Of a DNA stretch of 34,835 nucleotides, positions 1 through 19,540 are shown piece by piece. A program made the position numbers and the translations under genes. Position 1 is the first letter of the stretch, and every line of letters begins with the position of its first letter. The stretch spans positions 1-34,835 of the forward strand of contig CAYVIG010000002.1 in NCBI GenBank assembly GCA_964451445.1. The letters run 5' to 3'. The stretch is from an uncultured Dehalococcoidia bacterium (GTDB lineage Bacteria; Chloroflexota; Dehalococcoidia; Lucifugimonadales; UBA3495). Below the pieces are notes generated by a model. That model was not told where the DNA came from and did no database searches. It saw only the letters and a list, made by a program, of their open reading frames with translations.

Positions 1-1
1 A

Positions 2-424
2 CCCGATGTCGCACCCACCCGGTACACGGCACTGTTGTTTTATCGGGGCCATTGGTGACCCTACTGCAATCGGCAGTTAGCCGAATGGGAAGCAAACAAA
101 GCGGAGCTGGACGATCTGGAAGTCACCGTCTACGCCGTGAGTGTCGATAGCAAAGAACACGCTCAGGAAGTTAAGGACAAGGGTTTGTCCTTCCCAATTG
201 CCTACGGCGCCACCAAAAAAGACGGCGCAACCATCGGCGCCTGGTGGTCCGAGGACCGGGGTGGCTACATCCAGCCAGCCGAATTCCTCCTGGGGCGTGG
301 TGGCACCGTGCTGGGGTCGATGTACGCCTCTGGGCCGGTGGGACGGATGGGCGCCGATGAAGCCATCCGCCAGATCACACGCCGGGAAGGCATCCGAAGG
401 GAAGAAGAGGCCGAGGCGCAATAG
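2..424 (+). CDS. PRX-like / AhpC-TSA (redoxin, thioredoxin-fold) thiol peroxidase, 5' partial, with in-frame TGA at 56..58 read as putative selenocysteine
   Basis: Frame 2 is open from the window edge: PDVAPTRYTALLFYRGHW-[TGA]-PYCNRQLAEWEANKAELDDLEVTVYAVSVDSKEH. It runs straight into track ORF 137..424. FYRGxW-C-P-x-C is the redox motif of PRX-like redoxins, and the TGA sits exactly at the first Cys. The stop is TAG at 422..424. Confidence 0.7.
56..58 (+). other. In-frame TGA, candidate selenocysteine (recoding) codon in a U-P-Y-C motif
   Basis: Direct reading gives cat tgg TGA ccc tac tgc. The same frame continues into a conserved redoxin C-terminal region. Confidence 0.6.
61..80 (+). other. 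Candidate bacterial SECIS-like hairpin immediately 3' of the TGA
   Basis: ACUGC(63-67)/GCAGU(73-77) forms a 5-bp stem with loop AAUCG. It extends by U62-A79 and C61-G80 with U78 bulged. A loop G lies 16 nt after the U of UGA. The structure is hand-folded only. Confidence 0.35.
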
Positions 425-466
425 CCTAAATCCAGGAATCGACCAGCTAAATTTAAGGAGATAGCC

Positions 467-1279
467 ATGAGCAACCAACAGGTGTTGGACCTGATGGAAC
501 GAGTTTGGCGTTCCATAGATTCGTTGTGCTCTCCCCTGAACGAAGCCCAGTGGAAAACCGCCACAGATTGCCCAGGATGGTCGGTTCAAGACCAGGTGTC
601 GCATATTGCCGGTGCGGAATCTGGCATACTTGGTAACCCACGCCCAGACCACATGCCGCAAGACACCTCCTACGTTCAGAACGACGTTGGCCAGTCCAAC
701 GAAGTGGTCGTCGACTACCGTCGCTCCTGGACAGGACAAGAGGTCTTAGACGAGTTCCGCCAACTCACCAACGAACGTTTGTCTTTCCTCAAAGGTCTGA
801 CCGAAGAGGGATTCAACGCCGAGACCGAAACACCCCTTGGTCCGGGCACCATCACAGACCATCTGCGTATTCGGATCATGGATGCCTGGGTCCACGAGCA
901 AGACATACGGCGCGCCCTAAACATACCTGGAGAACTGGACGGGCCAGTAGCAGCCCATTCCGTGGGTCGGTTCACCAGGGCCATGCCCTTTGTGGTTGCT
1001 AGAAAAGCGCAAGCTCCAGACGGCACCACCGTGGTCTTCAACATCACCGGGCCCGTTGGCAGGGTAATCTCTGTGGGCGTCGGCGGAAACAGGGGCAGTG
1101 AACTGGAAACAGAACCAGCCTCGCCAATGGTCACAATCACCGCCGATGTCGAAACCTTCACCTGCCTCAGTTGTGGCCGTTGGGCACCGTCAGATGCATT
1201 GACTTCAAGAAGGATCACCATCACCGGTGACACAACACTGGGTCAGACCATCATCAATCAAATGAACATCATGATCTGA
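467..1279 (+). CDS. Maleylpyruvate isomerase family mycothiol-dependent enzyme (DinB/MDMPI N-terminal fold, TIGR03083-like)
   Basis: The N-terminus reads ...WRSIDSLCSPLNEAQWKTATDCPGWSVQDQVSHI..., typical of the MDMPI_N/DinB_2 domain. The AAGGAG RBS lies 6 nt upstream of the ATG. Length is 270 aa. Confidence 0.8.
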   Translation: MSNQQVLDLMERVWRSIDSLCSPLNEAQWKTATDCPGWSVQDQVSHIAGAESGILGNPRPDHMPQDTSYVQNDVGQSNEVVVDYRRSWTGQEVLDEFRQLTNERLSFLKGLTEEGFNAETETPLGPGTITDHLRIRIMDAWVHEQDIRRALNIPGELDGPVAAHSVGRFTRAMPFVVARKAQAPDGTTVVFNITGPVGRVISVGVGGNRGSELETEPASPMVTITADVETFTCLSCGRWAPSDALTSRRITITGDTTLGQTIINQMNIMI

Positions 1280-1310
1280 TACTGTTTCGGCAACCCGTTC
1301 AGCCGTAGCC

Positions 1311-1338
1311 TGTGCAAGTAGCGGTCTTTCGTTATAAT
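1311..1338 (+). promoter_or_regulatory. Candidate sigma70-type promoter for the MFS gene (TGTGCA-16 nt-TATAAT)
   Basis: A perfect TATAAT sits at 1333..1338 with a weak -35 at 1311..1316. It lies about 70 nt upstream of the 1409 start. Confidence 0.3.
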
Positions 1339-1408
1339 GTGAGCGTCCTTCATACAAAATGTAATCATCTATTGGAATTTCATCTTCCAGACAGGCGGTA
1401 TTAGGTAA

Positions 1409-2782
1409 TTGGCTCTTCCAGTCAGACCAAAATTGGGCTTCTCAGCTGGTAATATGCCCTTCGGCATCCACTACAGTTGGATCATCATCGGCATCCTAGC
1501 CACCGTCCAGATCTTCGCCAGTTCCATCAGCATGGCTGCCGGAATCATGGTCCCGCCCCTGAATGACCCCGACGGGGAATTTAGCTGGAGCATGGGCGCC
1601 ATCGGCATGGTCATCGCCAGCTACTACCTGTTCGGCGCGATGTATGCCCCGATCACAGGCTGGCTGGGCGACCGCTACGGCTCGCGCCGGATGCTCTTAG
1701 CCGCAGCGACCATGTACATCATCAGCATGTTCCTGCTGAGCCAGGTGACCGAGATTTGGCACTTCTTCATCTTCTTCGGGATTCTGCTGTCCCTCACCCA
1801 ATCGCTGGCCATGGTCCCCTTGATGGCAGCGGTCAGCGGCTGGTTCCGTCGCCGGTTGGGACTGGGAGTGGGCCTTCTCTGGGGCGCAGGAGGCGCAGGA
1901 ACCGCCGTCATGGCCCCGGTCATAGGTGGGTTCATAGAAGCGTTCGGCTGGCAGTCCACCTTCATGCTCATTGGATCTGTTGGTGGGGGCATCATGCTCT
2001 GCTTGGTCCCCTTGATGAGGAGCAAACCAGCCGACATCGGCATCCAGCCCTATGGAGCCAGGCCAACGGATCCGCCACTGGTCGTCAGAGATAAGACCGT
2101 CGATCGGATGCGCCAGAAGGTATTCAATCAACACACCCGTAGTACCAAGCCGTTCTGGAATCTGCCATTGATCCATGCCCTGGGCTGCGCAGGGCATGGC
2201 ACCGTCTTGATCTACGTCATCCCCATGGCTTTTGAGCGTGGGGCATTCTCGTCATTGGCCCAAGCCGGTATCATCCTGACCATTATCGCCCTGATAAGCG
2301 TTATCAGTCGTATCGTGACGCCGATCATGGCAGAGGCCTACGGGACTCGAAAGATGATGGCCGCCAGTCTGTCCATTCAGGCCATCACCGTGTTCATGCT
2401 CTTTTGGTCCCATGACGCCTGGGCTTTTTACCTCTTCGCCGCGGTTTTCGGGATTGGATTCGGCGGGGAGTGGACGGGTTACCTAGTCATCAACCGCCAG
2501 TACTTCGGGGAAGGCCCGATGGGAACGGTCTACGGCTGGCAGACCACGGGCGCATTGATGGGTCACGCCGTGGCAACGGGTCTGGCTGGGTTGGTGGTCT
2601 ATGCGACCGGGTCTTTCAACGTGGTGATGGCCCTGTCTGTGGGGTTCAGCGCCTTTGGCGTGGTGGTCATCAGTATGCTAGATGACACGTCTCATGTACT
2701 GATTCCCAACTGGGAAGACGACATTCCTTCAGGAGAACCTCAGGTTGAACCGAACCTGGGCACGGCGACGGCGGACGACTAG
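1409..2782 (+). CDS. MFS transporter (oxalate/formate-antiporter-like class); TTG start at 1409, alternative ATG at 1454
   Basis: The protein has about 12 hydrophobic segments and a GWLGDRYGSRR loop motif between TM2 and TM3. It is a paralogue of 31671..32990 with the same N-terminal GIHY(S/A)WI and C-terminal IPNWED..IP...ADD. Confidence 0.88.
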   Translation: MALPVRPKLGFSAGNMPFGIHYSWIIIGILATVQIFASSISMAAGIMVPPLNDPDGEFSWSMGAIGMVIASYYLFGAMYAPITGWLGDRYGSRRMLLAAATMYIISMFLLSQVTEIWHFFIFFGILLSLTQSLAMVPLMAAVSGWFRRRLGLGVGLLWGAGGAGTAVMAPVIGGFIEAFGWQSTFMLIGSVGGGIMLCLVPLMRSKPADIGIQPYGARPTDPPLVVRDKTVDRMRQKVFNQHTRSTKPFWNLPLIHALGCAGHGTVLIYVIPMAFERGAFSSLAQAGIILTIIALISVISRIVTPIMAEAYGTRKMMAASLSIQAITVFMLFWSHDAWAFYLFAAVFGIGFGGEWTGYLVINRQYFGEGPMGTVYGWQTTGALMGHAVATGLAGLVVYATGSFNVVMALSVGFSAFGVVVISMLDDTSHVLIPNWEDDIPSGEPQVEPNLGTATADD

Positions 2783-2815
2783 GTCCCTTTTAAAACGGGA
2801 TGATGGCAAAGATTG

Positions 2816-2850
2816 GCCCTCATCCCAACCTTCTCTCTGAGGAAGAAGGG
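2816..2850 (+). repeat. Short dispersed intergenic repeat, copy 1 (GCCCTCATCCCAACCTTC-n5-GAGGAAGAAGGG)
   Basis: It matches the reverse complement of 24786..24822. The left arm is 17/18 identical, the right arm 12/12, and the centre is variable. Both copies lie just 3' of an MFS gene in the same relative orientation. Confidence 0.6.
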
Positions 2851-3030
2851 CCTCTGTTCCGGTCTCCAGAAGAGGCTTAACGCCGTTAGCAAAAGACTCT
2901 CCCAAAAAGTCGCCCCGAGCTTGCCAAAGGGTCTGCCGAACCGCAATTTGGTAGACTCTTCATGGTTCCACTCCTCAGGATTACAGTCTCGGAGAACGGC
3001 TCCTGAGACAGGATTAACGCTCTTCAGTGA

Positions 3031-4482
3031 CTATTCTTGATTTAGGAAATGCTTAACGAACTGGCTCATTGGTTCTTTGTCGTAGCGGGAGTTCATCAGC
3101 ACCACGTTGCGGTTTCTGTCCCCCTGGAAGAACCGCTCATAGAGTATCTGCCGTGAGCCAAACGCACTGCAGCAGGTATCCCAGGCCAGCCTGAACAATC
3201 TGACCCGATCCTTAGCGTTGGAGAAATCAGTCTCCAGATACCGGCCTATGTCTTCGGCTATGGGACCTTCGAAATCCTCTTCGGTAGGCAGGGCCATCAA
3301 GCTGCTGGAACCCAACAGGTGCAGTATCTCCCCCATACGCGGGTACATCTTAATGAACTGCTGGCGGGCCACCATCAACGAGATGTCCACCGGACACATC
3401 ACTCCCCACTCATCCAGCTCGGCATCCACTTCGGCCGCCCGAAGTAGGGCCTTGGTTATCTCAAGGTTCTCGATGATCTCCGCCATCATGCCGTGGACCT
3501 GGGGCGCTTCGCCCGAACCCAAAGTCTCGACCATCAGGTTGGCCAATCCCAAGATGAACTCGCATTTCACCACATTCTTGGTGACAACCTGGTGGCCCGA
3601 GTGCAGGTACTGGTGGGTTGTCAAAGACATGTTGTTGCACATGTCCACGTCGCCGTACAGGAAGACTCGCTCCCAAGGGACTAACACATTGTCGAAGAAG
3701 GCCAGAGCGTCCATCTCTTCAAACCGTGAACCTAGCGGATGATCAAAGCTGGAGCGCTGCAGGTCAAAGGGTTCCCGACATTGGAACTTCAATCCAGGAG
3801 CATCACAAGGAATAGCAAAGGCGAATGACGTCCGGCCTGGCGCTCCGGTGGGTAGACGGTGGGAGCGCGCCGGATAGACAGCGATCTCATCGGCGATGGG
3901 CAGAGTTGCCAGCACCCTGGCCCCGTTCACGATGATTCCCTCATCGGTCTCTTTCACCACCGACAACGCCACATCCAAGGAATCGTCCAGGGCTGTGGCC
4001 GCGCCGGAGCGGTTTCTCTGGATATTGACCAGCGTGTGGGTCAGGACCAGATCTTTCTCACGGACCATCTCGTAGTAATTTTGGATGTTCTTCTCAAACT
4101 CAGGGCGGTTCTGGCCAAAGAATTTACCTGCCGCAGCCATGGACATCAGGCTCACGTTCAAGAAATCCGGAGTCCGGCCCATCATCCCGCAGGTGATCTT
4201 GGCCCAGTTCCGCATCATCTGATGCCTAAGGTCCAGGTCTTCGTGGGTTTTGGGAGTCAAGAACGAGAGACCCACCTGGTCTCCAGTGGTGGGTGACTCA
4301 TAGGTCATATCATTCCCCACAACCGGATCATGTTGCAGGTCGTACAACCGGGCCAGAGTCTTGATTCCGCCCATGAGCCCGGGCTGAGTGGTGGGGTCCT
4401 TGACCTGTTTGCCAGCCATATAAAGATTGGGCGGTCTTTCCTTGAGTCCCTCGATATATTGTTTACCCGTTCTAGCTGGCAT
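3031..4482 (-). CDS. hpaB: 4-hydroxyphenylacetate 3-hydroxylase (HpaB) family flavin-dependent monooxygenase, oxygenase component
   Basis: The N-terminus MPARTGKQYIEGLKERPPNLYMAGKQVKDPTTQPG...LYDLQHDP...GMMGRTPDFLN closely resembles the HpaB/4-HBA-CoA dehydratase family. Length is 483 aa, with an AGGAGG RBS. The substrate is not inferable. Confidence 0.85.
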   Translation of the reverse strand: MPARTGKQYIEGLKERPPNLYMAGKQVKDPTTQPGLMGGIKTLARLYDLQHDPVVGNDMTYESPTTGDQVGLSFLTPKTHEDLDLRHQMMRNWAKITCGMMGRTPDFLNVSLMSMAAAGKFFGQNRPEFEKNIQNYYEMVREKDLVLTHTLVNIQRNRSGAATALDDSLDVALSVVKETDEGIIVNGARVLATLPIADEIAVYPARSHRLPTGAPGRTSFAFAIPCDAPGLKFQCREPFDLQRSSFDHPLGSRFEEMDALAFFDNVLVPWERVFLYGDVDMCNNMSLTTHQYLHSGHQVVTKNVVKCEFILGLANLMVETLGSGEAPQVHGMMAEIIENLEITKALLRAAEVDAELDEWGVMCPVDISLMVARQQFIKMYPRMGEILHLLGSSSLMALPTEEDFEGPIAEDIGRYLETDFSNAKDRVRLFRLAWDTCCSAFGSRQILYERFFQGDRNRNVVLMNSRYDKEPMSQFVKHFLNQE

Positions 4483-4607
4483 CAGCTATCCTCCTGTCAG
4501 TCCTGAGCCGGTACGAGTTCACCGATTTTGTTAGCCGACATTCTGCGGTAATCTCTCCTGTTTTACTAGAGTCTGCCTTTTCGAGACATCGTACGGTCCA
4601 GATACGA

Positions 4608-4636
4608 TTGACAGCGGTAGCTGTTTCCCCTAGTCT
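4608..4636 (+). promoter_or_regulatory. Candidate promoter for the deacetylase-fold genes (TTGACA-17 nt-TAGTCT)
   Basis: A perfect -35 hexamer sits at 4608..4613 with a weak -10. It lies in the divergent 200-bp intergenic region. Confidence 0.25.
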
Positions 4637-4683
4637 GGCCTCACATCACGGCCAGGCATACTTTTCTCAGGAGGCCCATTGAG

Positions 4684-5595
4684 ATGTCCCTAGCTCCGCA
4701 TCGAGTGGATTACAACCCCATAATCGAGCGTCCGCCCATCAAATGGCCCAACGGTGAAAGGGTGGCACTGTGGATCGCCCCCAACGTTGAGCACTATGAA
4801 TACATGCCCATCAAGTACGGACCACGCGACCCCTGGCCGCGCACACCGTATCCCGATGTTCAGCAGTACTCCTACCGTGATTACGGCAACCGGGTCGGGT
4901 TCTGGCGGATGCTGGAGGTCTTGGATCAGTACAAGATCCGCAGCTGCGTCTCATTGAACCTGGCCGTGTTGGAGCATTTTCCGGAGATCCGTAAGGCCAT
5001 GGTCGACCGGGACTGGGATTACATGACCCACGGCATCTATAACACCCGTTACCTCTATGCCTATACCGAGGCTGAAGAACGGGAGTTCTACCGCGACAAC
5101 ATCGAGACTGTGAAGAGATACACCGGCAAGAAACTGAACGGAATGCTTGGCCCAGCCATCTCTGGCACCGTCCGTACTCCTGACTTGATGGCTGAAGCCG
5201 GTCTGACTTATCACACCGACTGGATGCACGACGACCAGCCTGTGCCCATCAACGTGAACTCAGGCAACAAGCTAATCTCAGTCCCTTACTCAATCGAGTT
5301 GAACGATTCACCATTGTTCAGGGTGAACTACGAAGCCGAATACTTTGCAGAGATCTGCAAACGGCAGTTTGACCAGCTCTATAAAGAGGGAGCCGAGAGC
5401 GGCCGGGTGATGTGTATCGCCCTTCATCCCTTCCTGACGGGCCAACCCAACCGGATAAAGTACCTGGACGACATCCTCAGCTACATAACCGGACATGGCG
5501 AAATCTGGCTGACCACCGCGGACGACATAACCGAGTACTACCTCGAGAATTACTACGACCAAGCGGTGGCAGATAACAAGAAGTACCAGGTTTAG
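4684..5595 (+). CDS. Polysaccharide deacetylase-fold hydrolase, PuuE (metal-independent allantoinase)-like, paralogue 1
   Basis: It has YGNRVGFWRMLEVL, HG..N and ALHPFLTGQPNRIKYLDDIL signatures similar to PuuE-type deacetylase-family amidohydrolases. Length is 303 aa. Confidence 0.8.
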   Translation: MSLAPHRVDYNPIIERPPIKWPNGERVALWIAPNVEHYEYMPIKYGPRDPWPRTPYPDVQQYSYRDYGNRVGFWRMLEVLDQYKIRSCVSLNLAVLEHFPEIRKAMVDRDWDYMTHGIYNTRYLYAYTEAEEREFYRDNIETVKRYTGKKLNGMLGPAISGTVRTPDLMAEAGLTYHTDWMHDDQPVPINVNSGNKLISVPYSIELNDSPLFRVNYEAEYFAEICKRQFDQLYKEGAESGRVMCIALHPFLTGQPNRIKYLDDILSYITGHGEIWLTTADDITEYYLENYYDQAVADNKKYQV

Positions 5596-7173: not shown

Positions 7174-7815
7174 ATGATGCCAAGTCGGAAAATGCTGCCC
7201 TTGATGATTGCGGGTGGAGTCGTCACCGTAATCATGGGATTCATCCTGGTTGTTCTTCTTATTTCCTGGTTTTCAAACCCTCCTTTCGGATTAGGTAACG
7301 CACCGGCCCAGCCCGTGGCCTTCCCCCACACCGTTCACGTCGCCGATAACAACATCCAGTGCGAGTTCTGCCACCGGAACGTTACCAAGGGTAAGGCAGC
7401 CACTGTCCCAGCCGTGGAACAATGCCTGTTCTGCCATCAAGAGATCGATGGCGGATCCCCCACCACCAGCGTCAACTCCGTTGCGGAGATTCAAAAAGTT
7501 CGCGACGCATTCTCCTCTGATATGCCAATCGACTGGGAACGGGTTCACCGGCTCCCAGACCACGTCCGCTTCATCCATGAAGCCCATATAAGGTACTTCA
7601 CCAACGATGATATTCCGGTCAAAAAATACGGAATCAACGGCGAAGAGATAACAGAAACCCTGGATGTCGCTTTGACCTGCACCATCTGTCACGGCGACGT
7701 TGCAAACAAAGTGGAAGTACAGCCGAAGACCGGCCAGTCTCTAAAGATGGGAACCTGCCTGGATTGTCACCGTAACAATAACGTTCCTACAGACTGTACA
7801 GTCTGTCACAAGTAA
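7174..7815 (+). CDS. actA: Alternative complex III pentahaem cytochrome c subunit ActA
   Basis: It has an N-terminal TM anchor plus five CxxCH motifs (CEFCH, CLFCH, CTICH, CLDCH, CTVCH). It sits directly upstream of the actB-like genes. Confidence 0.88.
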   Translation: MMPSRKMLPLMIAGGVVTVIMGFILVVLLISWFSNPPFGLGNAPAQPVAFPHTVHVADNNIQCEFCHRNVTKGKAATVPAVEQCLFCHQEIDGGSPTTSVNSVAEIQKVRDAFSSDMPIDWERVHRLPDHVRFIHEAHIRYFTNDDIPVKKYGINGEEITETLDVALTCTICHGDVANKVEVQPKTGQSLKMGTCLDCHRNNNVPTDCTVCHK

Positions 7816-7853
7816 TTGGATTGCAAGGCCAGTAAGTAAAGGTCAGTAGGTAG

Positions 7854-10160
7854 ATGAAACTAACCCGGCGAAATTTTCTAGCTTGGGCCGGCCTGGGAGC
7901 GGTGGGAGCCGTTGCCTGTGAGGGCTTCGGCATCCGACACGGAGAACTGAATATTCAGAGCCCCGTCCAGTTGCCCGAGGACCTAGTCCGAGGAAACGAT
8001 AACTGGTACGCCAGCCTCTGTCGAACCTGTCCCTCTTGCGAGGGTATCGTCATTCGGGTCATGGAAGGCCGCGCCAAGATGATTCAAGGCAACCCCTTCT
8101 ATCCGACCAACCAAGGCAAGATTCACGCCCGTTGCGAATCAGGCCTCCAAGCCCTTTACCACCCGGACCGGATCGCCTCTCCCATGAGACGGAGCGGCCC
8201 CCGCATCTCAGCAGCGTTCACCCCGATCACCTGGCAACCCAACGGTATGGACGTACTGCGCACCGCCCTGCAAGAACGCGGTCGTTCCTCAGTAATGATC
8301 ACCGAGCCGCTAAGAGGCCACATGGCCCTCTTGGCCGACAAGTTCAGCTCTGCCATTGGCGGAGAGCACCTGGGCTTTGAGTCAATCGACAACAACACCT
8401 ACCGGGCAGCGGTCAAGAATGTCTTCGGACAGGACACCATGCCCGACTTTGACCTGGAACACAGCAGTTTCATACTTTCCTTTGGCGCGGACTTCCTCTC
8501 AACATGGGTCTCGCCCACCCGCTTCAACCGCGGGTACGGCGAGTTCCGGCAGGGCGAACACCGCGACCGTGGCATGTTCTATCAGGTAGATTCACGGTTC
8601 TCCATGACCGCGGCCAACTCGGACAAGTGGGTTCCAATAAAGCCCGGTTGGGAAGGTTATCTGGCCTTGAGTTTGGCTCAAGTGATCATCGCTGAGCGGC
8701 TCCAAGCCCCGGGCGTTGATGTGGCTTCACTGACCGGCGGTGATAACTTGGATTCCTTCCGGCCAGAAGCGGTTTTCGAAAAAGCCGGATTAACCTCAGA
8801 CATCGTCGGCGGTAACCCTGCCGAATTCATCAAGGACTTGGCCCGCAAATTCGCTGCCAGCCGACCCAGCATCGCGATTGGCGGCGGTTCAGCCGGAGCT
8901 TCAAGCAACGGACTCTTTAACCTGGAGGCGATCTACGCCCTCAACTACCTCGTTGGCAGTGTGGGCGAAGAAGGCGGAATCAAACTCAATCCTGGTAGCC
9001 CTTGGTCAAATGTACCGTCGACCTCCAATGTGGGCAGCCTAGAGGATTGGACCCGCGTCACCGAGCAGATTCGTAGCGGACAGACAAAACTGTTGCTGCT
9101 CCACGGAGTTGACCCGGTCCATGGTCTGCCAGATTCTGTTGACCTCAGAAATGCCATCACCCAGGCAGAAGACCTGATGGTTGTCAGCTTCTCGCCTTTC
9201 TTGGACGATACCAGCGCACTAGCCGACCTGATCCTCCCAGACCGCGTGTCTCTGGAGGACTGGGGCGACGATATATCAGAACCGGGACCTGGCTATCAGA
9301 TGGTTGGGCTCCAACAGCCAGTGGTTAATCCGCTGGGTGAAGTATCACCATTGAGTTTCCCCGACCTCCTCTTGATCATGGCCCAGGAACTGGGTAAAGA
9401 GTCCCAGCTGCCCTGGTCCAATTTCAAAAGCATGCTCAGGGAAGGCTCAGACGCCCTATTTGACCTGAACCGTGGTTCCATTGAAGCCGCAACGGCGGAT
9501 GAGTTCTGGAACAACCTGCTGAAACGCGGCGGCTGGTGGGACGAAAATGCCACCGGACCAAGCTCCGTACAGCCTTCTGCAGGGCTCTTGAAGACTATCG
9601 CAGGCAAGGCTTCAAACCCTGACTTCTCAGGAATCGGCATGGGTGCCGACTCCTATTACCTGGTGCCGTTCGTTCATAACACCTTGCTAGACGGATACAA
9701 CGCCCATCTGCCGTGGCTCCAATCCGCGCCAGACCCGCTGTCCACCGTTACCTGGCAGACTTGGGTGGAACTAAACGACAAGACCGCTGATAAACTGAAT
9801 GTCAAAGAAGGCGATATCCTCCGGATCGAGTCCTCCCAGGATTCCATCAGGGCCGTGGTCTACCCGACACCGGCAGCGCCGCCAGACGTGATCGGCATTC
9901 CCTTTGGCCAGGGCCGACAATACGGCTCCAACTACGCAACCAGCGGCAACGGTAACGAAAGTTCCAACGTGATGGACATCCTGGAGACCACCCAGGTCAA
10001 AGACTCTGGTTCGCTGGCGTGGGCCGGAACCAGAGTCAGGGTTTCCAAGACCGGAGAGAGCATAAGCATCTCCAAGCTCGAAGGCGATGCCAGGGCTGTC
10101 GAGATCGGCCTGTCACCCGCTGAAGACATCATCAAGACCATTACCCCGGATCACTCCTAA
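7854..10160 (+). CDS. actB1: ACIII ActB1: Tat-exported molybdopterin-oxidoreductase-like (MopB/CISM-fold) subunit
   Basis: It has a twin-arginine signal (MKLTRRNFLAWAGLGAVGAV), is 768 aa long and shows MopB-like architecture. It sits between actA and a 4-cluster ferredoxin subunit. Confidence 0.85.
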   Translation: MKLTRRNFLAWAGLGAVGAVACEGFGIRHGELNIQSPVQLPEDLVRGNDNWYASLCRTCPSCEGIVIRVMEGRAKMIQGNPFYPTNQGKIHARCESGLQALYHPDRIASPMRRSGPRISAAFTPITWQPNGMDVLRTALQERGRSSVMITEPLRGHMALLADKFSSAIGGEHLGFESIDNNTYRAAVKNVFGQDTMPDFDLEHSSFILSFGADFLSTWVSPTRFNRGYGEFRQGEHRDRGMFYQVDSRFSMTAANSDKWVPIKPGWEGYLALSLAQVIIAERLQAPGVDVASLTGGDNLDSFRPEAVFEKAGLTSDIVGGNPAEFIKDLARKFAASRPSIAIGGGSAGASSNGLFNLEAIYALNYLVGSVGEEGGIKLNPGSPWSNVPSTSNVGSLEDWTRVTEQIRSGQTKLLLLHGVDPVHGLPDSVDLRNAITQAEDLMVVSFSPFLDDTSALADLILPDRVSLEDWGDDISEPGPGYQMVGLQQPVVNPLGEVSPLSFPDLLLIMAQELGKESQLPWSNFKSMLREGSDALFDLNRGSIEAATADEFWNNLLKRGGWWDENATGPSSVQPSAGLLKTIAGKASNPDFSGIGMGADSYYLVPFVHNTLLDGYNAHLPWLQSAPDPLSTVTWQTWVELNDKTADKLNVKEGDILRIESSQDSIRAVVYPTPAAPPDVIGIPFGQGRQYGSNYATSGNGNESSNVMDILETTQVKDSGSLAWAGTRVRVSKTGESISISKLEGDARAVEIGLSPAEDIIKTITPDHS

Positions 10161-10214
10161 GAGAGTGAGTCGGATTTAACACAAGAACGACCAACCAAGA
10201 AGTGAAGTTAATCG

Positions 10215-11048
10215 ATGGTAACGACGAATAAAATAGGACACAAATGGGGAATGGTAGTGGATCTGGACCGGTGTACCGGCTGCCAGGCCTGTGTCATTGC
10301 TTGCCAAGCAGAGAACAACATTCCCATCAACACCAAGGATTACTTCCAACAACGACGGGCCTACGAATGGATCCGTATTGAACGTTACTGGGAAGGCGAG
10401 TTCCCTAACGTTAAAGCTAAATTCATTCCCATCCTGTGTCAGCACTGCGAAAACGCACCCTGCGAACCGGTCTGTCCGGTGTTCGCCACCTATCACAACG
10501 ATGAGGGCATGAACGTCCAGATTTATAACCGCTGCATCGGCACCCGCTATTGCTCGGTTAACTGCCCATACTCCGCCCGAATGTTCAACTACTGGCAGCC
10601 CAACTGGCCGGAGAGCTTCCGGAATCAGTTGAACCCAGATGTGACCGTTCGGACCCGTGGAATCATGGAAAAGTGCACCTTCTGCGTACAACGCCTCCGC
10701 CGCGGAGAGGTCAACGTGGAACGGCGCGGCATCGAGCCTCTGACCGGAGAGAAGATCGCCGGAGAACGCAAGCTCAATTACAGGCAGATGCAGGAAGGCA
10801 ATTACTTGCCTGCGTGCGTTCAGTCCTGCCCGACCAATGCACTACAATTCGCCGACCAGCACGACGAGACCGGTCCGGTGAAAGAGCACTTCGAAGAAGC
10901 TAACGAGATTGTTGAGAGACGCCATCACGGCGAACACATCAACGAACATGACAGCCGGACTTACCGGTTGTTTGAGGAAGTGGGTGCCACTCCCAACCTC
11001 ATTTACTTGAAGAAAGTTGAACCATTCCCCTTGGAAGAAAAGGCCTAG
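10215..11048 (+). CDS. actB2: ACIII ActB2: 4Fe-4S ferredoxin-type (PsrB/NrfC-like) iron-sulfur subunit
   Basis: The Cys groups are CTGCQACVIAC, CQHCENAPCEPVCP, CIGTRYCSVNCPY, CTFC and CVQSCP. Confidence 0.88.
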   Translation: MVTTNKIGHKWGMVVDLDRCTGCQACVIACQAENNIPINTKDYFQQRRAYEWIRIERYWEGEFPNVKAKFIPILCQHCENAPCEPVCPVFATYHNDEGMNVQIYNRCIGTRYCSVNCPYSARMFNYWQPNWPESFRNQLNPDVTVRTRGIMEKCTFCVQRLRRGEVNVERRGIEPLTGEKIAGERKLNYRQMQEGNYLPACVQSCPTNALQFADQHDETGPVKEHFEEANEIVERRHHGEHINEHDSRTYRLFEEVGATPNLIYLKKVEPFPLEEKA

Positions 11049-11052
11049 ATAG

Positions 11053-12483
11053 ATGGCGGCTGCAGAACCAAAAGGTCACGGCCAACACGCCGGTATGTGG
11101 GTTTACCCAGATGCCAAGGCGATGAGCCAAGACGTCTCTGAAAAATCACGGGTCATGGCAAAGCCATTCACAATGGCTCTAATCGTGACTGGAATCTTGT
11201 TCATCTTGGCTATCGTGGGCTTCATCGCCAGGACGGCTGATGACGGATTCGACGAAATCGGCCCATGGGGCTACTATACAGCCGTCTTCTCCATGATCTT
11301 CATGGTCACCAGCGGCGCGCCATTGGCGGCATGCGCGTTCCGTTTCACCAAGAGCCACTGGCGCAGGCCTCTCTCCAGAGTAGCTGAACTATTCTCGATT
11401 GTGGGTATCTTGAACCTCTTGATGTTCATCCCTATGATGATTTTTCTACCGGATCTGGAGAACCCTGCAGGCGCCGTCGAAGGTCAGATGGAACTGCGTA
11501 GGACTATCTGGTTTGAAGGCCCCATCGGCGCACCCCTCGCCTGGGATTTCGTCGGCGTAGCATTCCTAACTATTACGTCCATGGCCATCCTTTGGACTTC
11601 TGCAGTAGCAGATATGGGCGAAGCCCGCCATACCGCCACTGGATTCAAGGGCTGGCTCTACCGAACACTGGCCGGCGGTTGGTACGGCACCAAGCGACAA
11701 TGGAACGTACAGAAGGCTGGCCTGGCATTGCTCGGCGCTTTCTACTTCATGACCGTTGTCTTCATGCACTTCACCATCAGTTCTGACTACGCTCAGAGCT
11801 TGATTCCCGGTTGGAAAGACTCGATCTTCCCGGTGCTCTACACCGTTACAGCATTCCAGGTGTCCTTGGGCGCCATCCTAGTCACGTTGTTCATACTGCG
11901 CCGTTGGGGCGGCTACGAAGGCTACATCGGCAAGTCGACCTTCTGGTCGGGCAGCAAGGTGCTCCTGGGAATAACCCTGCTCTGGGTCTATCACCTGTTC
12001 GCCTTCTTCATCACGTTCTGGTATGGACGGTTGGAAGTCGAGCAGAACATCATCAAATACCTAATAGTCGATACATACTCGATTATCTTCATATTGAACC
12101 TAGCGTTCAGCTTTGTCCTGCCCTTCGCAGTCCTCGTATGGAACCCGGTACGCCGGAGCGACTGGGGGCCGTCCTTGGCGGGCCTGCTCGCTCTAATCGG
12201 CGGACTCATGTTCAACATCAGGATCTTCGTCGGGTCGGCCAATGCGGCTCCCGGCGAAAACCTTTACCACTTCTTCTTGGAGAAGGTACCGGCGCCGGCT
12301 TACCCCGATATCTGGGACGTATTCATGGTGGTTGGAGGAGTCGGCGCAGCCATCTTCATATACCTGATATCAACCAGGATCCTTCCAGTACTTTCCATCT
12401 GGGAAGTGAAGGAAGGCACTCTGTATCAGAAGTGGGGCAGACTGCACAGGGGAGAATATCAAGTCCTGGGTAAGCCTGAATAA
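11053..12483 (+). CDS. actF: NrfD/PsrC-family integral membrane subunit, divergent paralogue (ActF-like; ActC/ActF assignment uncertain)
   Basis: The 476-aa polytopic protein shares WRRPLSRVAE, KRQWNVQ and the C-terminal PVLSIWEVKEG with the next gene. It lacks that gene's strongly canonical NrfD N-terminal signature. Confidence 0.7.
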   Translation: MAAAEPKGHGQHAGMWVYPDAKAMSQDVSEKSRVMAKPFTMALIVTGILFILAIVGFIARTADDGFDEIGPWGYYTAVFSMIFMVTSGAPLAACAFRFTKSHWRRPLSRVAELFSIVGILNLLMFIPMMIFLPDLENPAGAVEGQMELRRTIWFEGPIGAPLAWDFVGVAFLTITSMAILWTSAVADMGEARHTATGFKGWLYRTLAGGWYGTKRQWNVQKAGLALLGAFYFMTVVFMHFTISSDYAQSLIPGWKDSIFPVLYTVTAFQVSLGAILVTLFILRRWGGYEGYIGKSTFWSGSKVLLGITLLWVYHLFAFFITFWYGRLEVEQNIIKYLIVDTYSIIFILNLAFSFVLPFAVLVWNPVRRSDWGPSLAGLLALIGGLMFNIRIFVGSANAAPGENLYHFFLEKVPAPAYPDIWDVFMVVGGVGAAIFIYLISTRILPVLSIWEVKEGTLYQKWGRLHRGEYQVLGKPE

Positions 12484-12581
12484 GTAGCGCTTAAACTTAG
12501 AGATAATCTAAAGACATCAAAGGGATGCCAAAGCCCGGCGTCCACCGAACATTAGACTGGTAAACCGTCCAACGGAGCATC

Positions 12582-13973
12582 ATGCAGGAAGGCAAACCAC
12601 TACAATCTAAGCAGATAAACAGAGAACTGCTCTTAACGATTCTCAATTCGCCTAAGTGGTTCTTTACGACTGTATCTGTGCTTGGCATCATCGTAATGGT
12701 TGCCATGGGTGCAGCTGGCTACATGATTAACCAGGGCTTCGGGGTTACCGGTCTCAACCGACCAGTAATGTGGGGGTTCTTCATCACCAACTTCGTGTTC
12801 TGGATCGGTATCAGCCACGCCGGAGTTATGCTCTCAGCCATACTCCGTCTATCCAAGGCAGAATGGCGGCGTCCGGCCACCAGGGCCGCCGAGATTCTGA
12901 CGGTCTTCTCGCTGATGACGGCCATGACCATGCCTCTGATTCACACCGGCCGCCCCTGGCGTACCGTGTACTGGATCTACACCCTGCCGTTCGTTCCTTA
13001 TGACTACGCTCGCGGCATCTGGCCAAACGTCCGGACACCTCTGGTGTGGGACCCCAGCGCCGTTTACACCTACCTAACCTCCAGTATCCTGTTCGTCTTG
13101 GTTGCTTTGATACCTGATTTCGCAGTGCTGCGGGATCGCACCACCGGCATGAGCCACCGCATCTACGGGATGCTGGCCATGGGCTGGCAGGGCAATGCCC
13201 GACAGTGGAAGCTACAGATCATTGCCGGTGTCTTGCTTTCAGCCCTGATTCTGCCGGTCTTCGTTTCGGTACACAGTATCGTGTCCTGGGACTTCGGTAT
13301 GGCAGTCTCGGTTAAGTCCTGGCACTCCACCATCTTCGCCCCCTACTTCGTAGTCGGTGCGGTCCATTCCGGAGTGTCTGCGGTTGCCTTCGTACTGATT
13401 CTGCTTCGGTACGTATACGGATGGCAGAACTACATCCGTCACGAACACATCGACGCACTCGCCCGTCTCCTAGTTGTGGTAGCCACTGGTTGGTTCTACT
13501 TCCTGGTAATGGAGATCGTGTTTGGCTTCTACGGCCGGGAGGCTGATGAGATAGCCGTTAGGGACTACCAATTCATGGTCAGTCCATGGAACATCTGGAT
13601 GATGATCTTTGTGGGAGTAACCTACTTCCTACCGGTCGCCATCTGGCTGAGCCGCTCCGCCCGGCGAAACCTTTGGATCATGTCCATAGCATGTATCTCA
13701 GTGAACATAGGTATGTGGCTGGAACGTTTCTTGATCATTGTTCCTGGTTTGGCCCGCAAACAACTATTGACCTTCGACTGGTACACCTACACTCCCAGTT
13801 CAGTGGAGTGGATAATCGTCGGTGGTACCTTCGCCATGGTGACCATGCTCATGCTGGTTATTGCCAGAGTGGTCCCTTTGATCCCACTCTATGACATCAA
13901 AGAGGGCGAGATACTCAGAACAGAGATCAAGGTCGGCCGGGTGACCGTCCCTGCCGTCTTCCGAGAAGACTAG
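12582..13973 (+). CDS. actC: ACIII quinol-interacting NrfD/PsrC-family membrane subunit ActC
   Basis: GLNRPVMWGFFITNFVFWIGISHAGVMLSAILRL is a canonical NrfD/ActC signature. The protein is 463 aa and polytopic. Confidence 0.82.
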   Translation: MQEGKPLQSKQINRELLLTILNSPKWFFTTVSVLGIIVMVAMGAAGYMINQGFGVTGLNRPVMWGFFITNFVFWIGISHAGVMLSAILRLSKAEWRRPATRAAEILTVFSLMTAMTMPLIHTGRPWRTVYWIYTLPFVPYDYARGIWPNVRTPLVWDPSAVYTYLTSSILFVLVALIPDFAVLRDRTTGMSHRIYGMLAMGWQGNARQWKLQIIAGVLLSALILPVFVSVHSIVSWDFGMAVSVKSWHSTIFAPYFVVGAVHSGVSAVAFVLILLRYVYGWQNYIRHEHIDALARLLVVVATGWFYFLVMEIVFGFYGREADEIAVRDYQFMVSPWNIWMMIFVGVTYFLPVAIWLSRSARRNLWIMSIACISVNIGMWLERFLIIVPGLARKQLLTFDWYTYTPSSVEWIIVGGTFAMVTMLMLVIARVVPLIPLYDIKEGEILRTEIKVGRVTVPAVFRED

Positions 13974-14037
13974 AAGACTAAGCGCGGCGAACCCTTACGC
14001 CGATACTAATAAACAGTAGGCATCTCGAGGAAACAGA

Positions 14038-14556
14038 ATGGCTAAAAAACCGATATTAGGGTTGTTTGAAACGGCTGATAATGCCGCCGATGCGGGCGAT
14101 GCCCTGAAGGCTGCTGGCGTTGCACCAACCGATTTCGATTTTCTGACCGACGCCCCTTATCCGGAGGGCGCATTCGGTGAACGAGAGGAAAATCACCGCC
14201 TCTACATCTTCCCATTTGTCGGCGCCTTGATCGGCCTAACGGTGGGAATCATGTTAACTGCTATGACTCAGATGGCCTACCCGTTGGCTCAAGGCGGTAA
14301 GCCGATCTTGTCGATGCCTCCCATGGCTGTGGTGACCTACGAGAGCACAATGCTTACGGCAATCGTCTTCACCATCATCGGAATCATCTTCGAATCCAGG
14401 CTGCCTGCGTTCAAAGAAGGCCTGTATGACACGCGCATCACTGAGGGTTACATCGGCGTCCTGGTAAACGTGGACGAAGGCGAACTGACTTCAACCCAGA
14501 CTTTGCTCACCCAGGCAGGAGCCATCGACGTCGTACGTAAGGACGGAGGATCGTAG
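14038..14556 (+). CDS. actD: ACIII subunit ActD (DUF3341-like)
   Basis: The N-terminal soluble domain reads ILGLFETADNAADAGDALKAAGV...DFLTDAPYPEG and is followed by two TM segments. It sits after actC. Confidence 0.8.
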   Translation: MAKKPILGLFETADNAADAGDALKAAGVAPTDFDFLTDAPYPEGAFGEREENHRLYIFPFVGALIGLTVGIMLTAMTQMAYPLAQGGKPILSMPPMAVVTYESTMLTAIVFTIIGIIFESRLPAFKEGLYDTRITEGYIGVLVNVDEGELTSTQTLLTQAGAIDVVRKDGGS

Positions 14557-14561
14557 GCTTA

Positions 14562-15107
14562 ATGTTTAAGCGGGTCAATTTACATTCGACCCCGTCCAAC
14601 ACCAATCAGGTGACGGCGGGACGGAGCAAGCGCAGATTCAAGGGCTGGTTCTTCGGAATCGCAGTGCTCTTTGGTATTTTGGTCGTTGGCTGTAGCCAGG
14701 GAACATATCCGGTGGATATCTTCTATGAACAGCATTACCAACAGTCCTATAAGTCCCATGAACCACCTCGCCTGAGCGGATCGGCTGATGCCGTCGCATT
14801 CTTCCCACCGCCTGCGTCCACAGTGACCAACACTGGAGCTGACCTGTACCGGGTCAACTGCCAGATGTGCCACGGCGCCGATGCCAAGGGTACCGGTCCT
14901 GTCTTGGGCTTAATCACCCAGACCTATGGTTACTCGCCCATCGTTTCTGCAGACATTACCACCCGGGCGGTCGCGCTGATCGAAGCGCAACTCGGGAGGA
15001 CTTCACGGCCGTTCGGCGAAGCTTCCGTCATGCCGCCATTCGGCAAGCTTCTTAATACCGACGAACGGTCTGCCATCGCCCAATACGTAGGCTCACTCCC
15101 CAAGTAA
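14562..15107 (+). CDS. actE: ACIII monohaem cytochrome c lipoprotein ActE
   Basis: It has a signal peptide with lipobox LVVGC, a single CQMCH haem motif and a distal Met region (SVMPPFG). Confidence 0.8.
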   Translation: MFKRVNLHSTPSNTNQVTAGRSKRRFKGWFFGIAVLFGILVVGCSQGTYPVDIFYEQHYQQSYKSHEPPRLSGSADAVAFFPPPASTVTNTGADLYRVNCQMCHGADAKGTGPVLGLITQTYGYSPIVSADITTRAVALIEAQLGRTSRPFGEASVMPPFGKLLNTDERSAIAQYVGSLPK

Positions 15108-15167
15108 ACGCTCCGAAGGATCTAACCCGGAGGGTATTGGGGCTGCGTTTCCGGTTCCGGTTGATAT

Positions 15168-15836
15168 ATGAGACCTTTTTTCCTATGCCTCAAACCTTCT
15201 ACTTCGCTCCGCCGCATCATCCTGTCGCTATTGCCTCTCATACTGGCCTTCGCCGTGTTTCCTGGGTATTCCATCGGGATTCTTCACGCCCAGACCCCAG
15301 AACCGACCCCTCTGGTATCCATAGAGTCAGACCCACTGGAAGGAACCTATAGCGAGAGCCAAGCCCAGGGCATCGACCGTATGATCATGTGCCCGGTCTG
15401 TCCGGCTGAGACCATCGACCAAGCTCAGGTTGAGATATCATTCCAGATGCGGAAGATAGTCCGTGAGATGTTGTCCCAGGGAAGTAGCCGCGATGAGATA
15501 CTGGATTTCTTCGTAGAACGATACGGCAATGACATCCTGGCAGCGCCACCCAAATCGGGAGCCAGCCTGGTGGCCTGGCTGATGCCCATCGCTGGAGTGG
15601 TCGGTGGACTGATTGCGATGTACTTCATCCTCCGTTCCATGACCAGACGGGGGCTTGCACCAGCCACAACCCAACCAACAGTAGACGTTGGCCTGATCCC
15701 GTATCTCCAACTGGTAGACCGCCACCTGGACATGAGACGAGCCGCTCCCCAAGCCGCTGGCACATCCAATCAAAGGGAGCCCACCGTAGAATCATCCGGT
15801 ACCGGAATCCCATTTGAAACGGAAGAGAGCAGTTAG
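15168..15836 (+). CDS. ccmH: Cytochrome c-type biogenesis protein CcmH/CycL (System I)
   Basis: It has a signal peptide, the MCPVCPAETIDQ redox motif, ...EILDFFVERYGNDILAAPP and a following TM segment. Confidence 0.85.
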   Translation: MRPFFLCLKPSTSLRRIILSLLPLILAFAVFPGYSIGILHAQTPEPTPLVSIESDPLEGTYSESQAQGIDRMIMCPVCPAETIDQAQVEISFQMRKIVREMLSQGSSRDEILDFFVERYGNDILAAPPKSGASLVAWLMPIAGVVGGLIAMYFILRSMTRRGLAPATTQPTVDVGLIPYLQLVDRHLDMRRAAPQAAGTSNQREPTVESSGTGIPFETEESS

Positions 15837-17834: not shown

Positions 17835-17864
17835 CCCGATTGGCTACCCTGGTAAACTGAGTTC

Positions 17865-18314
17865 ATGGACGCTGAAACCGCCATATCCATCTTATTCGGC
17901 GCGCTATTGGCCATGTTCAGCGTCGCCGCCGTCGGATATTCTTTTTTCCGTGACAATCAACCGTTACCTGCCGACAACCCCACCTCATCTGATGCCGATG
18001 ACCAGGCCCTGGCAGATATCTTCGATGCCATAACCACCTTGGACCTTGAGTATCAGCTGGGGAGGTTGCCCGAGGAACAGTTCCAGGAGCAGTTCCAGGC
18101 ATACCGTGTGCATGCGGCAACGGTTCTTCGAGAGCAGCTTGTGGCCGGACGCGGCGACCCCGCCTGGGTCTTGGAACAAGAGATACTGCTGGCCAGAGGT
18201 CGGCATGAAAGTGCCGATGGGAGGGTAGTAGCCTGCCCTGATTGCAGCGCCGCCGTATTGGAAAGCGCTCCCAACTGCCCCCACTGCGGCACCGAACTGG
18301 TGTCCCAGTCGTGA
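17865..18314 (+). CDS. Hypothetical membrane-anchored zinc-ribbon protein
   Basis: It has an N-terminal TM segment (ISILFGALLAMFSVAAVGYSFF), the motif LDLEYQLGRLPEEQF and a C-terminal CPDC...CPHC zinc ribbon. Its stop overlaps the next start (GTGA). Confidence 0.65.
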   Translation: MDAETAISILFGALLAMFSVAAVGYSFFRDNQPLPADNPTSSDADDQALADIFDAITTLDLEYQLGRLPEEQFQEQFQAYRVHAATVLREQLVAGRGDPAWVLEQEILLARGRHESADGRVVACPDCSAAVLESAPNCPHCGTELVSQS

Positions 18315-19540
18315 AGATCAAGCTCTCTTTCTTACTCGTCTTGGCCGTCGTGACCTGCTTTTTCCCACTTGGCAGACCGTCTTTGCTGGCCCAGGAGACC
18401 ATCGAAGTACGAGGGCAGGTGATAAACGGCACAGCAGGCGCAGAGATCCCCGATGACCTAAGCGTTTTAATGCTTATCACCGACACTGACGGCAGACTAT
18501 CCGGCACTGGGCAGACCAGCCCGGATGGAAAGGGCCGATTCGTGTTTGAAGACGTTCAGGTCGAAAACGGGAACACCTACACCGTCAGCGTGGACCACCT
18601 GGGCGTGTTTTACGGAGTCTCCTTTGCTACCGACGGACTGGGAGATGACTTGCTCCTGACCGTGTACGAGACAACTCGCGACGCATCGATAATCGATGTG
18701 GAACGCCAAGTTATGGTGATTGCCGCCGTTGACAAGGACGAACAGATGGTCAGCGCCATTGAATTTGTCCGCATTGTGAACCCTTCTGACCGGACCCTGC
18801 TCCCGGATCTGACCAACATGGAGCAGATCAGCTTTTTGCGTTTCGCCCTGCCCCCTGATCCTGCTGAGTTGAGTGTGCAGTCAGACCTGCCTGGCGGTGA
18901 CATCGTGTCCATCGGGACCGGTTTTGCCCTGACATCTCCCGTGGTTCCAGGTGCTCACAGCATAGACTTCAGCTACGTCTTCCCGTATGAAGATGAGACG
19001 GTCTCCTACCGGCAGAGCCTGGTACAAGGGGCCGGTATTTTTCAGATTCTGGTACCAGATGCAGTCCCGAGCATGGCAGCGCCTGGTCTGACCAACGTGA
19101 AACCCGTGGATATTCAAGGGGCTTCATACCGGGCCTACGAGGACCGGGACTTACCCAAGGGACAAGGATTGCAGATCGAGATTACCGGGTTGCCGCTCCC
19201 AGGCGTCTGGGCAAGGTTCTCAAACTCGATCACCAGCGGCAGGTTCTGGCAGATCACCATACCCAGCGCTCTGGGTGCCACGCTGGCTTTTATGCTCCTG
19301 TGGGGTCTCATACGTGGTTATCGACCGGATTCCGGTATAGATGGCCAGTTAGCAGCCTCTCCCGCCCTGGATGCGGCTGAGAGGGCATCTGTGGTACGGG
19401 CAGTGGCAGCACTCGACCTTCGATTCCAGGAAGGAGCTGTCCCAGAACAGGATTACCTCACTCACCGACAACAGTTGCTGGACCGGGTGCTTGCCCCTGG
19501 CGGTGTCGACCACGAACAGCGTGCGGAGCAGGCAGAATGA
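18311..19540 (+). CDS. Hypothetical exported protein with C-terminal TM anchor (carboxypeptidase-regulatory-like beta-sandwich region)
   Basis: I prefer the GTG start at 18311 (VKIKLSFLLVLAVV... signal peptide) over the track start at 18242, which overlaps the upstream gene. It has a GRFVFEDVQVENGNTYTV region, the TM segment ALGATLAFMLLWGLI and the tail motif LDLRFQEGAVPEQDY. Confidence 0.65.
   Translation: MKIKLSFLLVLAVVTCFFPLGRPSLLAQETIEVRGQVINGTAGAEIPDDLSVLMLITDTDGRLSGTGQTSPDGKGRFVFEDVQVENGNTYTVSVDHLGVFYGVSFATDGLGDDLLLTVYETTRDASIIDVERQVMVIAAVDKDEQMVSAIEFVRIVNPSDRTLLPDLTNMEQISFLRFALPPDPAELSVQSDLPGGDIVSIGTGFALTSPVVPGAHSIDFSYVFPYEDETVSYRQSLVQGAGIFQILVPDAVPSMAAPGLTNVKPVDIQGASYRAYEDRDLPKGQGLQIEITGLPLPGVWARFSNSITSGRFWQITIPSALGATLAFMLLWGLIRGYRPDSGIDGQLAASPALDAAERASVVRAVAALDLRFQEGAVPEQDYLTHRQQLLDRVLAPGGVDHEQRAEQAE

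Follow-up and report, generated by a model that had tools for sequence, protein, structure and literature searches.

A UGA codon very probably read as selenocysteine, and a SECIS-type hairpin behind it, in a peroxiredoxin-like gene of marine SAR202-type Chloroflexota

We analysed a window of 34,835 nucleotides (nt), positions 1 to 34,835 of contig CAYVIG010000002.1 of an uncultured Dehalococcoidia bacterium, which opens within a gene for a peroxiredoxin (Prx)-like redox protein of marine SAR202-type Chloroflexota. The UGA at 56..58 of this gene very probably encodes selenocysteine (Sec, U), as indicated by its conservation across species, by Cys at the same column in related proteins and by a conserved RNA hairpin just downstream that has the features of a bacterial selenocysteine insertion sequence (SECIS). 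The elements concerned, with the evidence for each in brackets, are the following:

2..424, + strand: 3' part (140 codons plus stop) of the gene for a Prx-like (AhpC/TSA-fold) UxxC protein, a predicted selenoprotein (frame, Pfam, orthologues, codon-position variation)
56..58, + strand: in-frame TGA, very probably read as Sec, the U of UxxC (TGA at this column in 80/80 genomes and in metagenome loci; Cys, TGT or TGC, in Cys-type homologues)
65..67, + strand: TGC, partner Cys of U-P-Y-C, aligned with the peroxidatic Cys of BCP-type peroxiredoxins (invariant Cys; alignment to 2cx3)
70..84, + strand: putative bacterial SECIS-type hairpin within the coding sequence (synonymous freeze, covariation, RNAalifold, bacterial SECIS criteria)
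422..424, + strand: TAG stop of the predicted selenoprotein gene (sequence)

Starting at the window edge, frame 2 of the + strand runs as PDVAPTRYTALLFYRGHW-TGA(56..58)-PYCNRQLAEWEANKAELDDLEVTVYAVSVDSKEH... and closes at the TAG, its sole interruption being the TGA in the context ...LLFYRGHW-U-PYC.... A preliminary description of this DNA had followed the frame from the edge through the TGA into the listed open reading frame (ORF) at 137..424, and these coordinates were confirmed; the GTG start of the listed ORF is the internal Val of 'AVSVD'. With Cys substituted for the TGA, the 140-residue fragment matched Pfam AhpC-TSA (57.2 bits; gathering cut-off 26) and Redoxin. About 26 N-terminal codons of the gene fall outside the window edge.

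A search of 5.8 billion proteins returned 929 homologues, and the best 120 were inspected. In agreement with the earlier suggestion that a UxxC selenoprotein is truncated here by ORF calling, 113 of these 120 are only 95-122 aa long and begin just past the TGA column. In the seven full-length entries among them, the column is occupied by Cys (P0010, P0076), by Trp (four Joint Genome Institute (JGI) calls) or by Ser (P0001). At the DNA level, the orthologue sample comprised 80 species-representative genomes, all of them Dehalococcoidia/Chloroflexota/SAR202 metagenome-assembled genomes with 66-85% amino acid identity and many of them complete long-read chromosomes; counts over 81 sequences refer to the window plus these 80 orthologous loci. 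TGA was found at exactly the same column, within ...FYRGHW-TGA-PYC..., in 80/80 genomes, as well as in additional metagenome contigs. Most orthologues carry an ATG with a GGAG-type ribosome-binding site 44 codons 5' of the TGA, and the full-length ones encode 164-167 aa with U as residue 45. The partner Cys at U+3 is invariant (TGC in 72 and TGT in 9 of the 81 sequences).

Pairwise diversity by codon position, computed over the 80 orthologous loci, was 0.27/0.18/0.49 at positions 1/2/3 in the 30 codons before the TGA and 0.25/0.29/0.51 in codons +10..+40 after it; the region 5' of the start codon gave 0.72 at each of the three positions. Conservation on both sides of the TGA, as had been anticipated, was thus observed, and the same coding signature upstream and downstream indicates equal protein-level selection on both halves. 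This shared selection effectively leaves no room for a pseudogene, a sequencing error or a pair of separate genes.

The expectation that Cys would align with the TGA in homologues was also borne out, at the protein level by P0010 and P0076 and at the DNA level by locus L082 (TGT) and 17 distinct Cys-type loci; a metagenome scan seeded with a Cys-type protein contributed 80 further loci. P0001 (L083:71-574, on a 755-bp ENA contig), which is 68% identical, has TCA (Ser) at the Sec column, one base from TGA, and L083 retains a full SECIS-type hairpin (GCGGC-AGUUG-GCCGC). This TCA is either a very recent Sec-to-Ser change or a short-contig error.

The hairpin at 70..84 has a stem formed by 70-74 and 80-84 (U-CGGC / GCCG-A) and an apical loop at 75-79 (AGUUA), with 16 nt between UGA and loop; its core, CGGC-AGUUR-GCCG, lies in the region 71..83 and is closed by the pair 70/84. 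Codons +5..+8 are frozen at synonymous sites: Arg is CGG in 81/81 sequences, Gln is CAG in 81/81, Leu is encoded only by TTG or TTA in 81/81, and Ala is GCC in 80/81. Third-position diversity at these codons was 0.09 versus about 0.5 elsewhere, and other Arg, Leu and Ala columns of the same gene had a codon entropy of 1.2-1.9 bits. TTA accounts for only 4% of the Leu codons in the window's genes. The closing pair covaries (G-C in 49, U-A in 16 and unpaired in 13 distinct sequences), with a score that 0/500 column shuffles matched, and RNAalifold chose the same hairpin.

The bacterial SECIS (bSECIS) model, as set out in PMC13188914, describes an apical loop of 3-9 nt, an upper stem of 4-16 bp, a UGA-to-loop distance of 16-37 nt and a G, as a rule with G or U behind it, at loop position 1 or 2, together with a minimum free energy of -7.5 kcal/mol or lower. 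In terms of criteria (i)-(iii) of this model, the hairpin 70..84 has a 5-nt loop, a 5-bp stem, a spacing of 16 nt and, in 81/81 sequences, a G at loop position 2 followed by U. For the energy criterion (iv), the window copy is marginal against the published limit of -7.5 kcal/mol, at -6.8 kcal/mol when isolated and -7.6 kcal/mol as the in-context centroid. The orthologous hairpins have a median energy of -8.2 kcal/mol, and 50/81 lie at or below -7.5 kcal/mol.

We then scanned 91 distinct TGA-type and 17 distinct Cys-type sequences uniformly for criteria (i)-(iii). A qualifying hairpin was present in 87/91 TGA-type sequences, in 86 of them at exactly 16 nt and with an AGUU(R) loop, and 60 had energies of -7.5 kcal/mol or lower. 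Of the Cys-type sequences, 7/17 contained a qualifying hairpin, at scattered positions and with unrelated loops; none reached -7.5 kcal/mol, and the AGUU(R)/16-nt hairpin was absent. Cys-type L082 encodes the same R-Q-L-A by AGG CAG CTC GCG, and as a consequence has no hairpin. A TGA-type subgroup of 52% identity (L091-L093) has the AGUU loop at the same spacing on another stem (GACGCC/GGCGUC), which, judged from the aligned sequences, is a genuine compensatory replacement. Present in TGA-type genes, lost in Cys-type genes and maintained when its stem is replaced, the hairpin thus travels with the TGA, as expected of a SECIS.

The preliminary description had placed the SECIS hairpin at 61..80. 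A SECIS-like hairpin does exist, and bases 61..80 can pair, but the conserved hairpin is that at 70..84, and the one at 61..80 fails the spacing and loop rules of the bSECIS model. We rejected the latter as a candidate: it has a spacing of 9 nt, a 7-bp stem with a bulge and a 5-nt loop of variable sequence, with G in the first two loop positions in 16/81 sequences; its energy is -5.1 kcal/mol in the window and reaches -7.5 kcal/mol in 0/81; and its base changes are one-sided and of the wobble type only. Nor does it account for the frozen GCC codon. RNAalifold also drew a weak 4-bp hairpin (GGUG/UACU) at 54..65 (alignment columns 8-19) that encloses the UGA and whose pairs are invariant or wobble-only. 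A search for the conserved hairpin elsewhere gave four other perfect AGUUR hairpins, two of which follow a TGA (L019, L033) that lies in no coding frame.

At the customary spacing of 16 nt, no hairpin is seen in a more distant TGA subgroup (L097-L100 and L102; about 40% identity, FYRGHW-TGA-PYCKQQLTAF), and its first four distinct sequences contain nothing at all that fits the bSECIS model. L102 contains two TGA-containing paralogues in tandem (TGA at L102:836 and L102:1437), and behind the second there is only an unrelated hairpin, with a GGGC loop and a spacing of 34 nt. The subgroup may rely on a different SECIS.

TGA otherwise acts as a genuine stop in this DNA, as had been stated. The 26 long ORFs of the window end in TAG (14), TAA (8) or TGA (4), at 56% GC; TGA stops are found at 1277..1279, 18312..18314 and 20092..20094, and one lies in an ATGA stop/start overlap at 19537..19540. 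Moreover, 14/80 orthologues of the predicted selenoprotein gene themselves terminate in TGA, so that a single gene can contain both a TGA that is read through and a TGA that terminates it. UGA recoding here is context-dependent, and not a matter of a reassigned genetic code. TGA stops are rare in the source organism, and the lineage is selenoprotein-rich. The four JGI proteins (P0004, P0007, P0013, P0017), named 'peroxiredoxin', show W at the Sec column (HWWPYC). Since the DNA underlying P0007 (L084:841-1338) has TGA at this column, the W is an artefact, apparently of an alternative genetic code chosen for short contigs.

Regarding the protein itself, the AlphaFold2 model of the Cys-form homologue P0076 (pLDDT 90) places residue 45 at the N-terminus of helix 46-57. 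Its top Foldseek matches in the PDB are all peroxiredoxins (BCP, PrxQ, Prx6, AhpE), with TM scores of about 0.8 and 18-24% identity. For the query of the sequence alignments below, the N-terminal 26 residues were taken from homologue P0007, because the window lacks that N-terminus. In the alignment to A. pernix BCP (2cx3; E = 5e-7), U falls on the Ser/Thr of the Prx T/SxxC motif and the Cys at U+3 falls on the peroxidatic Cys. The active-site motif is R-G-H-W-U-P-Y-C, in which the Pro of PxxxTxxC has become Arg, the Thr/Ser has become Sec and the peroxidatic-aligned Cys is kept; the catalytic Arg of 2cx3 ('KRAVFIV') aligns with the Pro of 'IQPAEFLL' in a single HMMER pairwise alignment. Against the WCPPC thioredoxin-fold protein 4fyu, U falls on the N-terminal nucleophilic Cys. 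The earlier placement of the TGA at the redox Cys of a Prx-like protein therefore holds for the thioredoxin-type N-terminal Cys of CxxC, but not for the peroxidatic Cys. As the thioredoxin-type Cys position corresponds to the Thr/Ser of a true Prx, the protein is a Prx-like thiol oxidoreductase, that is, a peroxiredoxin-fold redoxin with a thioredoxin-type UxxC site, and not a canonical or TxxU peroxiredoxin. No NCBIfam model reached its cut-off (PrxU 26.9 bits versus 270; SelL-related 24 versus 120).

Several observations weigh against the assignment of Sec to this codon. Neither the 34.8-kb window nor the 80 loci (1.6 Mb) yielded selA, selB, selD or tRNA-Sec. The window hairpin is short, at -6.8 kcal/mol in isolation; its 16-nt spacing is the lower limit of the published range; a single stem pair covaries within close orthologues; folding of the 76-nt region was no better than that of shuffles (z = +1.47); and Rfam gave no match, whether the whole window was searched at gathering scores or positions 1..300 at E up to 10. 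In addition, the window begins part-way through the gene, and just one other contig has it, starting at window position 59. This contig, L081 (an ENA scaffold of 4966 bp equivalent to window 59..5024), is the only other public contig with the window's neighbouring gene, and its first base directly follows the TGA, which is probably a coincidental assembly break.

As for the Sec machinery, ARAGORN detected no tRNA-Sec in the window or the 80 loci, although it may miss the 8/4-type tRNA-Sec of Chloroflexi, and tblastn with E. coli SelA, SelB and SelD probes gave no match in the 1.6 Mb. Only out-of-frame artefacts came out of a read-through scan and of a tblastn screen for Cys/TGA pairs, run with 6,659 ORFs against all loci; no second selenoprotein gene was detected nearby. 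Support for the machinery comes from the literature and is at lineage level only. For Chloroflexi, PMC5389517 reports a tRNA-Sec of 8/4 structure. BSepDB, as described in PMC13326102, limited its search for selenoprotein genes to species having two or more of SelA, SelB and SelD; among its ten bacteria richest in selenoproteins is 'Dehalococcoidia bacterium 10f4566d-ab44-49ae-b774-fc9f760c6436', with 46 genes. From this isolate comes our locus L027 (OY761986.2), which bears the orthologous TGA.

We considered four other explanations for the in-frame TGA. A pseudogene, or a sequencing or assembly error at the TGA, with no full-length protein made, would account for the lone in-frame stop of a gene that is incomplete in the window, and the TCA of L083 shows that the site can differ by one base. 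However, the same TGA recurs in 80/80 independent genomes and in additional metagenome contigs, coding selection acts on both halves and the linked RNA hairpin is conserved, so that cross-species conservation effectively refutes this explanation, which we regard as highly improbable. Equally improbable is the production of two proteins, a 44-aa peptide stopping at the TGA and a second protein of 113-116 aa starting downstream, near 'LAEWEA'. Most database entries are annotated in this way, but the post-TGA protein would lack the entire CxxC active site and the first beta-strands of the fold, and the upstream 44 codons are under protein-level selection, with their own ATG and ribosome-binding site. 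Besides, the start annotated in the databases is TTA in the window, which is no start codon; this is why the gene caller fell back on GTG 137, an internal Val codon.

The W at this column in P0004, P0007, P0013 and P0017 would fit a genetic code in which TGA is a sense codon for Trp or Gly, a possibility to which we attach practically no weight. The DNA of P0007 has TGA and its W stems from the gene caller's choice of code on a short contig, TGA closes 4/26 long window ORFs (including the ATGA overlap) as well as 14/80 orthologues, and homologues without TGA show Cys at the column, not Trp or Gly. Hairpin-stimulated read-through with a residue other than Sec (Cys or Trp, inserted by a suppressor or near-cognate tRNA) would be compatible with the failure to see Sec machinery in the window and the 80 loci, and the inserted residue is deduced here from sequence. 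Nevertheless, it is very unlikely, given that the hairpin resembles the SelB-type bSECIS in loop sequence and spacing, that BSepDB documents Sec use, with 46 selenoprotein genes, for a genome bearing an orthologue, that tRNA-Sec has been reported in Chloroflexi (PMC5389517), and that the family with the same motif has been catalogued as selenoproteins. A link to UGA-to-Cys recoding in Chloroflexi by way of PMC5424206 was discarded, as that paper concerns SepRS/SepCysS and describes no UGA recoding.

With Sec as the very probable residue, we infer the following mechanism. The gene product would be cytoplasmic, about 166 aa long and of peroxiredoxin (AhpC/TSA) fold, with the active site U-P-Y-C. 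During its synthesis, the mRNA hairpin 70..84 would act as a bacterial SECIS and bring SelB with Sec-tRNA(Sec) to the ribosome, and UGA codons without such a hairpin would terminate normally. Sec would be the N-terminal nucleophile of a thioredoxin-type CxxC and sit where the first helix begins, with the Cys at +3 as its partner. From this arrangement it would follow that the protein most likely alternates between a selenol/thiol and a selenenylsulfide state, as a thiol:disulfide (or hydroperoxide) oxidoreductase.

The predicted selenoprotein gene is followed by a gene of another family. Both elements below lie directly behind it:

455..460, + strand: AAGGAG ribosome-binding site of the downstream gene, 6 nt 5' of its ATG (sequence)
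467..1279, + strand: MDMPI_N/DinB-type gene, TIGR03083 'maleylpyruvate isomerase family mycothiol-dependent enzyme' (Pfam, NCBIfam, 54/80 loci)

The downstream gene starts 42 nt after the redoxin gene and, in addition to its Pfam MDMPI_N/DinB-type assignment, matches TIGR03083 in NCBIfam with 122 bits versus a cut-off of 50. A TIGR03083/MDMPI_N/DinB-type gene was found directly downstream on the same strand, about 400 nt 3' of the TGA, in 54/80 loci. The two genes are probably co-transcribed, which suggests a conserved two-gene unit; any functional link would be an extrapolation from this arrangement. MDMPI-type enzymes normally need a low-molecular-weight thiol, and the redoxin may serve the DinB/MDMPI-type thiol-dependent enzyme encoded next to it. 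Taken further, the Sec redoxin and the TIGR03083 enzyme could form a dedicated module in which the redoxin replaces or recycles the low-molecular-weight thiol, and the minimal hairpin could represent a lineage-specific SECIS class recognised by the SelB of Dehalococcoidia. This joint proposal is tentative and, as a whole, rather unlikely to hold; neither the two-protein module nor the SECIS class is mentioned in the available portions of the related literature.

Elsewhere in the window lie genes for MFS transporters, an HpaB-type monooxygenase, an alternative complex III cluster, cytochrome c maturation and varied catabolic enzymes. Within 7174..20094, the alternative complex III-like cluster comprises a multihaem cytochrome, a molybdopterin-like subunit, a 4Fe-4S subunit, NrfD, ActD and a cytochrome c. 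Next come CcmH, CcmF and two ORFs without a Pfam match (17865..18314 and 18242..19540), and at 19537..20094 a membrane-anchored ResA/TlpA-like thioredoxin (WCQPC). On the opposite strand, 26268..26846 (-) encodes an AhpD/CMD 'peroxidase-related enzyme' (TIGR01926, CIYC motif) with a weak match to the NCBIfam AhpD-related (seleno)protein model; the copy here has Cys, is intact and contains no in-frame TGA. Upstream of it and overlapping with it is an ORF of 165 aa, at 26843..27340 (-), without a family match.

Prx-like selenoproteins were already known from marine metagenomes, as the preliminary description had stated. The 2008 selenoproteome of the Global Ocean Sampling (GOS) data contains a 'Prx-like 1' family (pfam00578, UxxC, 225 Sec sequences; Zhang & Gladyshev 2008, PMC2398784), and its supplementary sequence file lists GHWUPYC 27 times under this family. 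Likewise, later reviews (PMC9312934, PMC13188914) count the 'Prx-like thiol:disulfide oxidoreductase' (PF00578, UxxC/UxxU) among the high-confidence prokaryotic selenoprotein families. The window protein shares with 'Prx-like 1' the Pfam domain, the UxxC and, in those 27 sequences, an identical local motif, FYRGHWUPYC, and over about 120 residues it is 44% identical to JCVI_READ_1161201 (E = 2e-38) and 43% identical to JCVI_READ_286511 (3e-38). It differs in its membership of a SAR202/Dehalococcoidia subclade, which shares only about 44% identity with the GOS examples compared, and in its pairing with a DinB/MDMPI gene, which goes unmentioned in the available text on the family. This comparison covered GOS members of the family; the exemplar named in the reviews is Geobacter WP_010940744.1.

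Selenocysteine peroxiredoxins (Prx TxxU; PrxU, NF040737) likewise have the AhpC/TSA fold and Sec in the active-site turn before helix 1, but there Sec replaces the peroxidatic Cys, whereas in the window protein it would sit three residues earlier, with Cys kept at the peroxidatic position. The BCP/PrxQ-type proteins (PDB 3hjp, 2cx3, 3drn) are the nearest solved folds (TM 0.79-0.85, 2.0-2.3 A root-mean-square deviation), although identity is 18-24%, their PxxxT/SxxC corresponds to RxxxUxxC in the window protein and their catalytic Arg aligns with Pro. Thioredoxin/tryparedoxin-type proteins with WCPPC (PDB 4fyu) and ResA/TlpA-type redoxins match HW-U/C-P-x-C residue for residue, WCPPC being the pattern compared, while the window protein has the larger peroxiredoxin fold; moreover, unlike the ResA-like gene product at 19537..20094, it has no signal peptide or membrane anchor. 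Finally, the hairpin resembles the E. coli fdhF-type SECIS and the bSECIS consensus in being a stem-loop in the coding sequence just 3' of the UGA, with a small loop carrying G then U and a spacing within 16-37 nt. It differs from the fdhF type in being much shorter (4-6 bp upper stem), in having the minimum spacing of 16 nt and in an AGUU(R) loop that is invariant across the clade.

The window gene is thus a SAR202-type subclade addition to a selenoprotein family catalogued since 2008, in a lineage known to be rich in selenoproteins. A specialist would not be surprised by it, and the known picture of selenoproteins is unchanged. It does provide an unusually clean computational case of a coding-region SECIS, in which synonymous sites are frozen, the stem has changed in a compensatory way and Cys homologues have lost the hairpin, and it agrees with the published picture of marine Dehalococcoidia as selenoprotein-rich. 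Its chief value lies in annotation: with 113 of the 120 closest proteins truncated at the TGA, four given a spurious Trp and no NCBIfam model at its cut-off, most public records lack the active site of this very widespread SAR202 redox protein.

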